64,000 nucleotides of DNA from Clostridia bacterium (GTDB taxonomy: Bacteria > Bacillota > Clostridia > Oscillospirales > RGIG8002), in contig JAFZXI010000077.1 in the NCBI GenBank assembly GCA_017616855.1, positions 6,710-70,709 on the forward strand. Direction: 5' to 3'. The position numbers and the translations under genes are program-made. Under the pieces are notes generated by a model. That model was not told the DNA's origin. It made no database searches and saw only the letters and a list, made by a program, of their open reading frames with translations. The stretch's first letter is position 1, and each line of letters begins with the position of its first letter. Positions 31,972 to 34,682 of the stretch are shown in pieces.

Positions 31972-33255
31972 TCACTGTTTGGAGAGCTCCTCGAACTCTT
32001 TTCTGTGGTCGAGGAAAACCTTCGCGAGCTTCGGATCGAAATGTGAACCCGCCTCATCGGCGATAATGCTGAAGGCCTCTTCCGTTGACATCGCTTCTTT
32101 GTAGCAGCGTTCGGATATGAGCGCGTCGAAGACGTCGGCGATCGCCATGATTCTGGCGGAAAGGGGAGTTTTTTCTTCCGTGCGGCCTTCCGGGTATCCT
32201 TTGCCGTCCCATTTTTCATGGTGGTAGGTCGCTATATCGGAGGCAAAATCCTGATACGATTCGTCCGCGATACCGTTGAGCACCTCGCGCACAACGTCGC
32301 CGCCGACTGCGGCATGCCGCTTCATTATCGTAAACTCTTCTTCCGTCAGTTTGCCCGGCTTTTTGAGTATGCGGTCGGGAACAACGACCTTTCCGATATC
32401 ATGCATCGGCGCGAGTGTGTAAAGAAGCGCGATGAAATCGTCGGTTATCTCATCGCTGTAAACTCCGTCTTCGCGGGCGAACTCAGCCAGCGCTTTCGCG
32501 TAAGCGCTCGTGCGCGTGATGTGCTCGCCGGTCTCCATATCGCGGTTTTCGATGAGGTTTGCCAGTCCGGAAATGATGTGCTCCTGCATGGCGGACATCT
32601 TTTTCTGGTTCGAGACGAGCTCCGCTTGAATATCCTGTTGGACGAGGTCGTTATAGTAGATGTAGCAGATGCAAGCGCTGATCGCAACGGCGATATATGT
32701 GATATTGAGCTTGAATATCGTCATCGGAAGCATTCCGGCTATGAGCACAACGAGCACCATGCCGATGGTCAGTCTGTCTCTGTGGCGGAATCTCTTGCCT
32801 ACGATAATCATGCTTACGAGCAGGTAGGCCAGACTTGCGAAATAGAAAACTCCGTATATGAAGAAAAGCTTTCCGCGGTGATAGCCGTCCGCGTCGAAGT
32901 AAAACATCCATCCGAAAGGCGCGGCAATGGCTTCCACAAGCAGGTTAACGGAAAAGAATACGATGGCGGTTTTCCTCTGATTGTGGAGACCGAGCGCTCC
33001 GGAGAACAGAATGCCCAAAAGGGGAGAAAGCGAAAACTGGATGACCGTGATAATCGTCAACGGGATCGCAAACGACGGTTTATACTCGATGCCGTGGACG
33101 CAGAACTCCGCCGCGGAGCAAAGCATGACTGCGATGAACGTAAGCAGATACCACACCTTCTGGACCTTGGTGAAACCGGAATAGGTCAGAACGTGAAGCG
33201 TCATCGCGAGCATCAACAGCTCAGTCAAAAGAATTACGCAAGAATAGAAAGTCAT
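31972..33255 (-). CDS. membrane-bound HD-GYP domain protein (putative c-di-GMP phosphodiesterase)
   Basis: N-terminal polytopic membrane domain (~6-7 TM), then HD-GYP signatures (…HDIGKVVVP…, …HHEKWDGKGYP…). No clear SD or promoter upstream of ATG 33255. Confidence 0.85.
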   Translation of the reverse strand: MTFYSCVILLTELLMLAMTLHVLTYSGFTKVQKVWYLLTFIAVMLCSAAEFCVHGIEYKPSFAIPLTIITVIQFSLSPLLGILFSGALGLHNQRKTAIVFFSVNLLVEAIAAPFGWMFYFDADGYHRGKLFFIYGVFYFASLAYLLVSMIIVGKRFRHRDRLTIGMVLVVLIAGMLPMTIFKLNITYIAVAISACICYIYYNDLVQQDIQAELVSNQKKMSAMQEHIISGLANLIENRDMETGEHITRTSAYAKALAEFAREDGVYSDEITDDFIALLYTLAPMHDIGKVVVPDRILKKPGKLTEEEFTIMKRHAAVGGDVVREVLNGIADESYQDFASDIATYHHEKWDGKGYPEGRTEEKTPLSARIMAIADVFDALISERCYKEAMSTEEAFSIIADEAGSHFDPKLAKVFLDHRKEFEELSKQ

Positions 33256-33307
33256 TATGAATTTTCAAAAAATGTATAAATAAGGCGAGAGCGCGAATGC
33301 TGATTTC

Positions 33308-33394
33308 TCCGCTTCGCTGCGCTTGCGGATTTGGAGCTCCGTTTCGAATCCTTTCCGAATCCGACTAATAGAATGAGCCACCCGTTTGGGTGGC
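33308..33394. repeat. copy 1 of an ~87-nt direct repeat (contains the 19-nt core and half of a palindrome)
   Basis: Matches 33622-33709 with two substitutions and one small substitution/indel site, by eye. Confidence 0.85.
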
Positions 33395-33430
33395 GTTGAG
33401 TGGCCATGCGTGCGCTACTGCAAATCACAA

Positions 33431-33527
33431 CTTTCGATTCTCGCTTGCGCAACGCTCCGCCGGAGCGTTGCTGCCGAAGCCGCTGCGCGCCTTCGGAGCT
33501 CCGTTTCGAATCCCTCCTTCTCCGCCA
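33431..33527. repeat. variant repeat unit: two 10-bp hairpins, the 19-nt core, and an inverted copy of the tRNA-Ser 3' end
   Basis: Hairpin GCAACGCTCC-gcc-GGAGCGTTGC (33449-33471), hairpin CCGAAG…CTTCGG (33474-33496), core GGAGCTCCGTTTCGAATCC (33495-33513). Positions 33505-33527 equal the reverse complement of 33719-33741. Confidence 0.85.
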
Positions 33528-33553
33528 AAATAAAGAGCCGCCAGAATGGCGGT
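33527..33553 (-). terminator. intrinsic terminator inside the repeat array
   Basis: Minus strand reads ACCGCCA-ttc-TGGCGGC followed by TCTTTATTTT. Confidence 0.55.
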
Positions 33554-33567
33554 AACTGTAAATGGAT

Positions 33568-33718
33568 CGGAGGGATTCTCTTCTCGCTGACGCAACAGTC
33601 CACCGGACTGTTGCTCCCAAATCCGCTTCACTGCGCTTGCGGATTTGGAGCTCCGTTTCGAATCCTTTCCAAATCCGACTAATAGAATGAGCCACCCAAT
33701 TTGGGTGGCTCATTCTAT
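33568..33718. repeat. full repeat unit: two 10-bp hairpins, core, third complementary arm, and a ~17-bp-arm palindrome abutting the tRNA
   Basis: Hairpin GCAACAGTCC-acc-GGACTGTTGC (33592-33614). CCAAATCCGC (33617-33626) pairs with GCGGATTTGG (33639-33648), which can alternatively pair with CCAAATCCG (33669-33677). Core at 33647-33665. Palindrome AATAGAATGAGCCACCC…GGGTGGCTCATTCTATT (33681-33718). Confidence 0.85.
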
Positions 33719-33811
33719 TGGCGGAGAAGGAGGGATTCGAACCCTCGAGATGCTTTTGACACCTACACGATTTCCAATCGTGCGCCCTCGGCCAAGCTAG
33801 GCGACTTCTCC
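33719..33811 (-). tRNA. tRNA-Ser (anticodon GGA), CCA encoded
   Basis: Hand-folded cloverleaf. Acceptor GGAGAAG/CTTCTCC, anticodon arm CACGA-TTGGAAA-TCGTG, long variable arm (class II), T-arm GAGGG-TTCGAAT-CCCTC, discriminator G, CCA. Confidence 0.9.
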
Positions 33812-33844
33812 GAGTAACGCGCCCCGAAAGGGGCAACGCATATT

Positions 33845-33873
33845 ATTATACTTGCGGGTTTGCGTTTTGTCAA
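33845..33873 (-). promoter_or_regulatory. consensus sigma-A promoter upstream of tRNA-Ser
   Basis: Minus strand reads TTGACA (33873-33868), 17 nt, then TATAAT (33850-33845), ~33 nt upstream of the mature tRNA 5' end. Confidence 0.65.
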
Positions 33874-33896
33874 TCTATTTTTTCGCGTATCGACGA

Positions 33897-34682
33897 TTAT
33901 TTTTGATCGATGCCGAGGAGCTTTTCTGCATTCTTGTGAAGTATCATCTCGCGCTCGTCATCGGTAAGGTCGATGCGGTTGAATCTTTCAAACTCCGGCT
34001 CGAAGCTCCACATCGGGAAATCCGTGCCGAAAAGGAACTTGTCCGCGCCGTGAGCGCGAATGAAATCGCGCGCGAACTCCGGTGTTATATACGAAAGCGA
34101 GCTTGAAGTGTCCATATACACGTCAGTGCCGCAGAGCAGTGAGAGCGATTCGTTCCACGCGCGGTAACCGCCGAAATGCGCTCCGATGACCGTCAGTTTC
34201 GGGAAGTCGCCGATGACTTTTTTCAGTCGGGCGGGGGAGGACAAATCGGATCTGTCGTCGCCCATATGGAAAAGTATCGGCAGTCTGCCCTCGGCGGCTT
34301 CGTATATCCTGTAAGCGCCGGGGTCGTCTATGGCGAAGCCCTGAAACTCGGGGTGTATCTTCAGTCCCTTGCAGCCGAGCGAGATAACGCGGTCAATCTC
34401 TCCGGCGCAGTCCTCGAATCCGGCGTGTATCGAAGCGAAACCGAATACGCGGTCGTTGATTATGCCGGAAAGCCAGGTGTTAATGGAGATGACCTGGCGC
34501 GGCACCGTCGCGGTGGCGAGCAGGACGACCTTGCGCTCGGGGTCGCCGTCGAGAAATGCCTGCATGGTGGGCAGCTTGCCGTCCTCCTGCATGGGTATGC
34601 CGTAATAATCGCCGATGGCGTTGACGGCTTTCGTGACAATATTATCGGGAAATGCGTGGCAGTGGAAATCTATTATTTTCAT
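33897..34682 (-). CDS. amidohydrolase-2 family metal-dependent hydrolase (TIM barrel)
   Basis: N-terminal MKIIDFHCHAFP (metal-binding HxH) and overall amidohydrolase-2 pattern. Substrate unknown. Confidence 0.75.
   Translation of the reverse strand: MKIIDFHCHAFPDNIVTKAVNAIGDYYGIPMQEDGKLPTMQAFLDGDPERKVVLLATATVPRQVISINTWLSGIINDRVFGFASIHAGFEDCAGEIDRVISLGCKGLKIHPEFQGFAIDDPGAYRIYEAAEGRLPILFHMGDDRSDLSSPARLKKVIGDFPKLTVIGAHFGGYRAWNESLSLLCGTDVYMDTSSSLSYITPEFARDFIRAHGADKFLFGTDFPMWSFEPEFERFNRIDLTDDEREMILHKNAEKLLGIDQK

Follow-up and report, generated by a model that had tools for sequence, protein, structure and literature searches.

The window (the whole 64-kb stretch of DNA that was analysed) contains a tRNA-Ser(GGA) gene with encoded CCA on the minus strand at 33719-33811 (ARAGORN; Rfam tRNA, 52.2 bits), which is preceded by a TTGACA-17-TATAAT promoter with 12 out of 12 matches in the promoter scan (33845-33873, minus strand). 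Downstream on the same strand, a gene encoding an HD-GYP (HD_5) membrane protein is located at 31972-33255, and the 460 nt between both genes are occupied by an array that consists of three hairpin-repeat units with a terminator at the boundary of each. Neighbouring genes encode RecD2, a ComF-like protein, MreB, an amidohydrolase, the HD-GYP protein, a HAD hydrolase, and a Na/H exchanger. The tRNA-Ser 5' leader (33812-33844, minus strand) forms a small hairpin, GCCCC-UUUC-GGGGC, of which the loop alone is changed in assembly L003; in relatives with an approximately 72-75% identical amidohydrolase (tails of L015, L016, and L017), UGCCA-CUUU-UGGCA is found at the same site. Judged from these sequences, this suggests that the leader stem is conserved across these relatives.

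Read on the tRNA strand, the order of elements is tRNA, Term0, unit A, Term1, unit B, Term2, and unit C. Term0, a perfect 19-bp palindromic hairpin situated directly after the tRNA gene (33681-33719), is putatively a bidirectional terminator and carries the tail CAUUCUAUU on the transcribed strand. Unit A (33553-33680, minus strand) comprises a degenerate arm, AGUCGGAUUUGGAAAGGAUUCGAA, the core, and hairpins P1 and P2. It is followed by Term1 (33528-33552, minus strand), a predicted terminator hairpin CCGCCAUUCUGGCGG with a U-tract, and by unit B (33395-33527, minus strand) with an anti-tRNA arm, the core, and hairpins P1b and P2b. Term2 (33367-33394, minus strand; predicted hairpin GCCACCCAAACGGGUGGC plus tail) separates unit B from unit C (33259-33366, minus strand), which is a partial copy of unit A with 94% identity over 83 nt and a period of 314 nt. 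Every unit is built from a variable arm, the core GGAUUCGAAACGGAGCUCC, and GC-rich hairpins; in unit B the 19-nt core GGAGCTCCGTTTCGAATCC is located at 33495-33513 (plus strand), with further occurrences at 33333-33351 and 33647-33665. Term1 and Term2 were reported by the terminator scan on the minus strand, and a GC-rich stem followed by a U-tract is predicted for all three terminators. Array-like sequence, as a dispersed REP or MITE family with many genomic copies would provide, was not found elsewhere in the 64-kb window.

The 23-mer TTCGAATCCCTCCTTCTCCGCCA occurs at exactly two sites of the window, 33505-33527 on the plus strand and 33719-33741 on the minus strand, and no further site was found there with up to three mismatches. 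The sequence of the plus-strand site is that of the 23 nt at the 3' end of the tRNA-Ser(GGA) on the minus strand. Hence, the right arm (33719-33741, minus strand) consists of the T-loop, the T-stem 3' strand, the acceptor 3' strand, G73, and CCA, and the left arm (33505-33527, minus strand), which reads 5'-UGGCGGAGAAGGAGGGAUUCGAA on the tRNA strand and forms the 5' end of unit B, is the reverse complement of this tRNA 3' half in 23 out of 23 nt, 191 nt away. A two-site 23-mer match was obtained in none of 100 dinucleotide shuffles, which rules out a chance origin, with 6 of the 23 nt coming free due to the self-reverse-complementary TTCGAA. The perfect inverted copy that had been described in an earlier note on this DNA is therefore real, and so is its position after the U-tract of an internal terminator (stem 33552-33538, tail CTCTTTATTT), as the left arm begins directly 3' of the Term1 U-tract on the tRNA strand. 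The inverted arms reach 43 nt at 86%, past the CCA and into the terminator flank, which argues that the unit of symmetry is a DNA palindrome and not the mature tRNA. Further tRNA-end debris is present within the array, namely a further inverted copy, degenerate at 70%, of T-arm and acceptor 3' strand at 33286-33312 (plus strand) and a 10-nt same-strand copy of GAAUCCCUCC at 33569-33578 (minus strand), which is able to pair with the anti-tRNA arm across Term1.

Among the three units, only unit B has an arm matching the tRNA. Where the other two units have 14 nt after TTCGAATCC, unit B has this arm, in agreement with the earlier note, which had seen it as replacing their third arm. Compared with units A and C, unit B differs in one contiguous block from the terminator to TTCGAA, and the following 19-nt core is identical; such a replaced block next to an unchanged core is the signature of a multi-base templated replacement. 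By manual alignment, the arms of units A and C are approximately 71% like that of unit B. They hold a 9-10-nt exact reverse complement of the neighbouring hairpin strand, which looks like a second copying event. If a tRNA with the 3' half TTCGAATCCTTTCCAAATCC existed, the arms of units A and C would be anti-arms to another tRNA.

In L001, L034, L033, and L018, a TTGAAAT-17-TATAAT promoter and a GGAAGG ribosome binding site lie downstream of the repeats and upstream of the HD-GYP start codon. Approximately 67 nt, which in the sister strains hold this promoter and the ribosome binding site (GGAAGGCGAAATAATG), are missing from the window (33256-33275 compared to L001:373-444, L034:281-351, and L033:148-219), and its HD-GYP ATG follows TTTGAAAATTCATA without a Shine-Dalgarno sequence. 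The HD-GYP gene of the window may be silent or dependent on read-through, or the deletion may be an assembly variant. Since the promoter lies downstream of the repeats in the sister strains, the array is not normally a leader of the HD-GYP gene, and an HD-GYP leader or riboswitch was dismissed on these grounds. The "leader RNA" of the earlier note thus applies to the window with its 67-nt deletion only, and not to sister strains in which the HD-GYP gene has its own promoter.

Other assemblies of the locus were found via exact-protein look-ups and subsequently aligned. L002 and L001 are near-identical to the window (the HD-GYP protein of L001 is identical) and contain three units, with a 1-nt deletion in the core of unit B. 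L034 (98% in the HD-GYP DNA) contains two units, the anti-arm and core being joined to the body of unit C, and L033, of the same species, has a single unit in the form of a continuous palindrome. L003 shares an identical amidohydrolase protein upstream, is diverged downstream, and has no module. Copy numbers of one, two or three are therefore observed in same-species assemblies and zero in the more divergent L003. Here, a tRNA with the same 3' end is followed by a plain bidirectional terminator and a 70%-identical HD-GYP gene, and an inverted copy is absent. Absence of the copy from a close relative had been named in the earlier note as evidence against its proposal, and L003 presents this case.

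The contig of L033 starts with CTCCGCCA, TAAGAG, CCGCCATTCTGGCGG, CTCTTTATTT, and TGGCGGAGAAGGAGGGATTCGAA, so that tRNA 3' end, Term1, and anti-arm are contiguous and the donor is 32 nt away across the terminator. As the contig contains only the last 8 nt of the tRNA, adjacency of the anti-arm to a full tRNA gene is presumed from this sequence. If the tRNA 3' half is added back, the 77 nt of tRNA 3' half, terminator, and anti-arm constitute a near-perfect palindrome which folds as one hairpin (-41.1 kcal/mol, z = -13). Term1 of L033 has a full 8-bp stem (GAGCCGCC/GGCGGCTC), whereas insertion of unit A has shortened the 5' strand of this stem in the window; thus, the L033 form looks older. Between L033 and the window, 1-3 mismatches per 100 nt occur in the last half of the HD-GYP gene and approximately 20 per 100 nt in one recombinant block, 5 out of 129 positions differ in the intergenic region, and the core carries two substitutions. 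Due to these substitutions and the 1-nt deletion in L001 and L002, the core cannot be regarded as strictly kept within the species. Invariance of the 23-mer was rejected as a sign of selection, since zero changes in 23 nt are expected at the 2-3% background divergence of L033 and such invariance is uninformative.

The locus is a recombination mosaic (window 31972-33255 compared to L033:217-1500 and L003:3001-4408). In L033, the HD-GYP gene is 97-99% identical to that of the window over its last half and approximately 80% over nt 100-600; in L003, next to the identical amidohydrolase protein and with an HD-GYP N-terminus of 70% identity, homology is lost precisely at the CCA of the tRNA. In L004 (3872-3975), an identical amidohydrolase gene is accompanied by a variant allele of tRNA-Ser(GGA), in which the T-arm differs and CCA is not encoded (GAGAGTTCAAATCTCTCCTTCTCCGCTA); the contig ends 13 nt after this allele. 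Metagenome contigs L005, L006, L014-L017, and L035, which stem from several assemblers, likewise end inside or just after the tRNA-Ser gene, a pattern that fits branching of strains at the 3' end of the tRNA. In the search for orthologous loci via amidohydrolase homologues, all contigs stop in or before the tRNA, and via HD-GYP homologues synteny is gone at approximately 70% identity. However the inverted copy arose, the locus marks rapid structural change beside a tRNA gene.

Exact-match scans with the 19-mer core covered genomes, metagenome contigs, and viral contigs. Out of 185,579 species genomes, a single one contains it, the Treponema MAG L009 (JAAYNH010000076), together with one metagenome contig (L011) that carries the same tRNA cluster as L009. 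Except for these, two genome matches and three metagenome matches were dismissed as chance matches to coding sequence, and none was found in viral contigs. The Treponema cluster (L009:1520-2440) comprises all four tRNA-Ser isoacceptors and a tRNA-Arg. The UCN readers tga, cga, and gga are each followed by a 12-13-nt spacer, an arm, and then ATTCGAAACGGAG, C or T, and TCCCGCTGAGCA; the AGY reader gct is without the module. None of these tRNA-Ser genes encodes CCA, and the arms stop within the acceptor stem and never reach the tRNA 3' end. In case of tga, the arm GCAGGTGGGATTCGAA faces TTCGAATCCCACCTGC of the tRNA with 16 contiguous pairs, and in case of cga and gga, the arm GGGGGG(G)ATTCGAA faces TTCGAATCCCCCTC with 13 and 15 pairs, respectively, including one U-G. 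GCAG of the tga arm complements CUGC, the acceptor 3' strand, and does not copy the 5' strand GCGG, which identifies the arms as complements, or inverted copies, of the 3' half of the tRNA.

In the register-fixed alignment, position 64 of the tRNA pairs as U-A, C-G or A-U in 6 out of 6 tRNA-arm combinations. For these six combinations, a small set of related members, the covariation score exceeds that of all 500 shuffles and peaks in register. Co-variation between tRNA and anti-tRNA, which had been proposed as a check in the earlier note, is thus found among the Treponema paralogues; templated copying predicts the same pattern. Between the Clostridia window and Treponema approximately 20-21 nt of the core (21 invariant positions) are shared and homology ends there; whole-unit homology between the phyla was consequently discarded, the common stretch being only about 21 nt. 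On manual reading, the 9-mer GGAGCTCCG equals nt 1-4 of tRNA-Ser joined to nt 69-73, and the core itself may be derived from tRNA-Ser. A gluconate 5-dehydrogenase gene beside the tRNA cluster (L009:2677-3489) encodes a protein 86-92% identical to proteins named after Bacteroides, Prevotella, Clostridia, and Bulleidia, a sequence similarity which suggests recent horizontal spread of this gene; loci of Treponema relatives found via this gene are without the tRNA cluster.

At the RNA level, minimum free energies of the window tRNA joined to the L033 trailer were -81.0 kcal/mol for the joined construct, -36.3 kcal/mol for the cloverleaf, and -19.6 kcal/mol for the trailer. In the predicted joined fold, the tRNA 3' half pairs with the anti-arm (-46.3 kcal/mol for the 23-mer duplex alone), and the same pairing is predicted for the 322-nt read-through RNA of the window. 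In a read-through RNA, the anti-arm would according to these models out-compete the cloverleaf and engage the tRNA 3' half in a 23-bp duplex, as a consequence of the sequence, any function of this duplex being putative. Due to its location beyond two predicted terminators, the anti-arm would be carried by rare read-through transcripts only.

Taken together, the 23-nt copy is most likely the outer arm of a palindrome that grew from the tRNA terminator and not a dedicated tRNA sensor. The anatomy, the strain series, and the energetics are results of the analysis, and from them we infer a mutational mechanism and an order of events. With a confidence close to but short of even, we propose that a terminator palindrome was lengthened by templated copying of DNA, either through template switching or through conversion between inverted repeats, and was later split by insertion of a unit. 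The starting point would have been a tRNA trailer with the small hairpin module GGAUUC-GAAACG-GAGcUCC, the first 9 nt of which complement any T-loop of the form TTCGAATCC. Templated copying, either by a replication template switch at the hairpin or by gene conversion between inverted arms, would then have rewritten the sequence from the terminator stem to the palindromic TTCGAA into the exact reverse complement of the tRNA 3' half. The product, a palindrome of tRNA, terminator, and anti-tRNA, presumably persists in one same-species assembly, L033. In the lineage of the window, a second unit with its own terminator would have been inserted between the tRNA and the old terminator, leaving the arms 191 nt apart, and a 314-nt tandem duplication would later have added the third unit. 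The adjoining arm was probably rewritten repeatedly to complement whichever strand was available, i.e., the tRNA 3' half (unit B, Treponema) or the neighbouring hairpin (units A and C).

Template switching is known to generate reverse-complement copies, perfect stems in one event, and expansions of inverted-repeat arms (PMC8794818; PMC13100816); palindrome extension at the DNA level was ranked first because template switching makes such copies. Two features of a template switch are present here, an exact reverse complement of a nearby donor and a segment that adjoins and extends a hairpin, and copy-less states for comparison are given by the paralogous units A and C (one block different, core identical) and by L003 (no module). 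Also in line with copying is the lack of recombinase, reverse transcriptase or transposase domains among the approximately 38 window ORFs tested, and variable copy number together with the tRNA-end debris at 33286-33312 and 33569-33578 points to a recombination-prone hairpin array. As in the template-switch quasipalindromes described (PMC8794818; PMC13100816), a reverse-complement copy lies by an existing hairpin, a contiguous multi-base tract is replaced between identical flanks, and a perfect long stem results. In contrast to these, the donor is the 3' half of a tRNA gene, the tract amounts to 17 nt plus the palindromic TTCGAA, and the event is deduced from paralogous units and strain variants instead of a reconstructed ancestor. 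The palindrome of L033 is imperfect in its A/U part (TAAGAG versus CTCTTTATTT), so that a single clean switch across the whole arm needs later indels, and the tie of the core to tRNA-Ser in two phyla is not explained by a purely accidental by-product. If the mutational reading is true, the locus is a clean natural case of templated copying in which a terminator hairpin swallowed half a tRNA gene. The 23-bp "antisense" would be a by-product of the mechanism, which cautions that selection is not required for perfect complementarity, or even for co-variation with an adjacent gene, to arise.

Less probable, and in our estimate rather unlikely, is a functional trailer module of tRNA-Ser, in which the conserved hairpin GGAUUC-GAAACG-GAGcUCC is combined with a variable arm selected to complement the 3' half of its own tRNA. 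In precursor or read-through RNA, the arm would invade the T-arm and acceptor and refold the cloverleaf as a long duplex, which would either mark the RNA for RNase III or decay or slow down maturation of the 3' end. The presence of the module at three UCN tRNA-Ser genes of L009, with 16, 13, and 15 contiguous pairs to the own tRNA, argues for such a role, as does the in-register covariation of position 64 (6 out of 6 comparisons, above all 500 shuffles). The cga and gga arms furthermore fit the tRNA, with a U-G wobble possible on the tRNA strand only, better than the 3' strand of the module, where G and G clash, but template switching too would give arms that match an adjacent tRNA. The duplex of the window tRNA with the L033 trailer is favoured (-81.0 versus about -56 kcal/mol for cloverleaf plus terminator), but in the window tRNA and arm lie two terminators apart, and two of its three arms (A and C) mismatch the tRNA. 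Selection for RNA pairing would better account for the association of the core with tRNA-Ser in both phyla. Against it, the exact core is rare, being present in one out of 185,579 species genomes and in one metagenome contig that shares the tRNA cluster; it also varies among same-species assemblies by an indel and by substitutions, and it is missing along with the whole module from L003. As the Treponema arms never reach the tRNA 3' end, the CCA complement in the window looks copied rather than selected. The cis-antisense in read-through precursors put forward in the earlier note keeps a place, favoured by the Treponema co-variation, a pattern that copying at the DNA level predicts as well; as a whole, the description given in that note held, and its functional ideas fared less well. 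If the functional alternative is true, tRNA-Ser genes of unrelated bacteria from gut and digester are equipped with a matching anti-tRNA trailer, which would represent a new layer of tRNA precursor control. It is even more doubtful that the data reveal a new tRNA-Ser cis-element in at least two phyla, consisting of an approximately 20-nt core and an arm matched to the own tRNA, which flips the cloverleaf of precursor or read-through RNA into a duplex or guides a very small tRNA-Ser-targeting element.

Debris of site-specific recombination is improbable. Here, a tRNA-Ser-targeting element would have crossed over at the palindromic T-loop TTCGAA, where orientation is ambiguous, leaving an element arm GGAGCTCCGT joined to the tRNA 3' half. 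In T-loop-class tRNA att sites the identity block extends from the T-loop to the CCA, and this extent, a homology break at the tRNA end, and a variable locus are common to the att sites of integrative elements and the locus described here. All copies in both phyla break at GGAGCTCCGT followed by TTCGAAT, strain homology ends exactly at the tRNA CCA, and many assemblies end in or just past the tRNA. In contrast to att sites, the repeat is inverted, as the earlier note had rightly stressed in setting it apart from a direct-repeat att scar, and the only direct copy comprises 10 nt; no integrase was found within 10 kb or among the approximately 38 tested window ORFs; and an element body is lacking, the units measuring 130-160 nt. 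The core is absent from viral contigs, phage and plasmid searches with unit 2 (core included) returned only tRNA-like or chance matches, the conserved part in Treponema is limited to approximately 35-45 nt without an element body, and the two "sites" of L033 flank only a terminator. The latter arrangement speaks equally against an invertible switch, in which the perfect 23-bp inverted repeats around a short segment would serve an invertase as sites for flipping 191 bp. Metagenome contigs do break nearby, but L002 and L034 span the segment in the orientation of the window and L001, which starts inside, agrees; recombinases are lacking among the tested window ORFs, and the promoter scan of 33528-33718 gave no promoter-like site, so that we give this explanation very little weight. 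Just as little probability is assigned to a primer-binding site for tRNA-primed reverse transcription or a sensor that, like a T-box, would recognise the 3' end of uncharged tRNA-Ser, both of which had been suggested in the earlier note. The arm starts with 5'-UGG and is complementary to the terminal CCA as well as to another 20 nt, resembling the primer-binding sites of retroviruses and LTR retrotransposons, which start with 5'-TGG and complement a tRNA 3' end including the CCA. Unlike these, the 23-nt match continues into the terminator flank, and complementarity beyond the tRNA end speaks against a primer-binding site as well as a sensor of mature tRNA; a retroelement is absent, and no reverse transcriptase was detected among the approximately 38 window ORFs. 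We know of no bacterial tRNA-primed element. With a T-box leader only the logic of pairing with the NCCA end is shared, but Stem I, specifier, and T-box sequence are missing, and the downstream HD-GYP gene has its own promoter in the sister strains. In addition, the Treponema tRNA-Ser genes do not encode CCA and their arms end within the acceptor stem, and Rfam (cmscan, E up to 10, 32500-34500) returned no T-box and no passing family other than tRNA.

Weak matches to the Rfam models sX4, plastid trnS-antisense, and permuted-tmRNA were below threshold and were set aside. In case of sX4 (RF02223, a Xanthomonas sRNA), the weak alignment covers tRNA-Ser and trailer, and in the consensus of the model the 3' strand of the T-stem is C-rich and pairs with a G-run further downstream. 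With 28.7 bits compared to a threshold of 70, mostly contributed by the tRNA part, the locus is not a member of this family. Sub-threshold sX4 matches are located at 33687-33828 (minus strand) of the window and at L009:1510-1629, 2042-2152, and 2267-2388, and trailers pairing with the T-arm may, following this hint, occur elsewhere.
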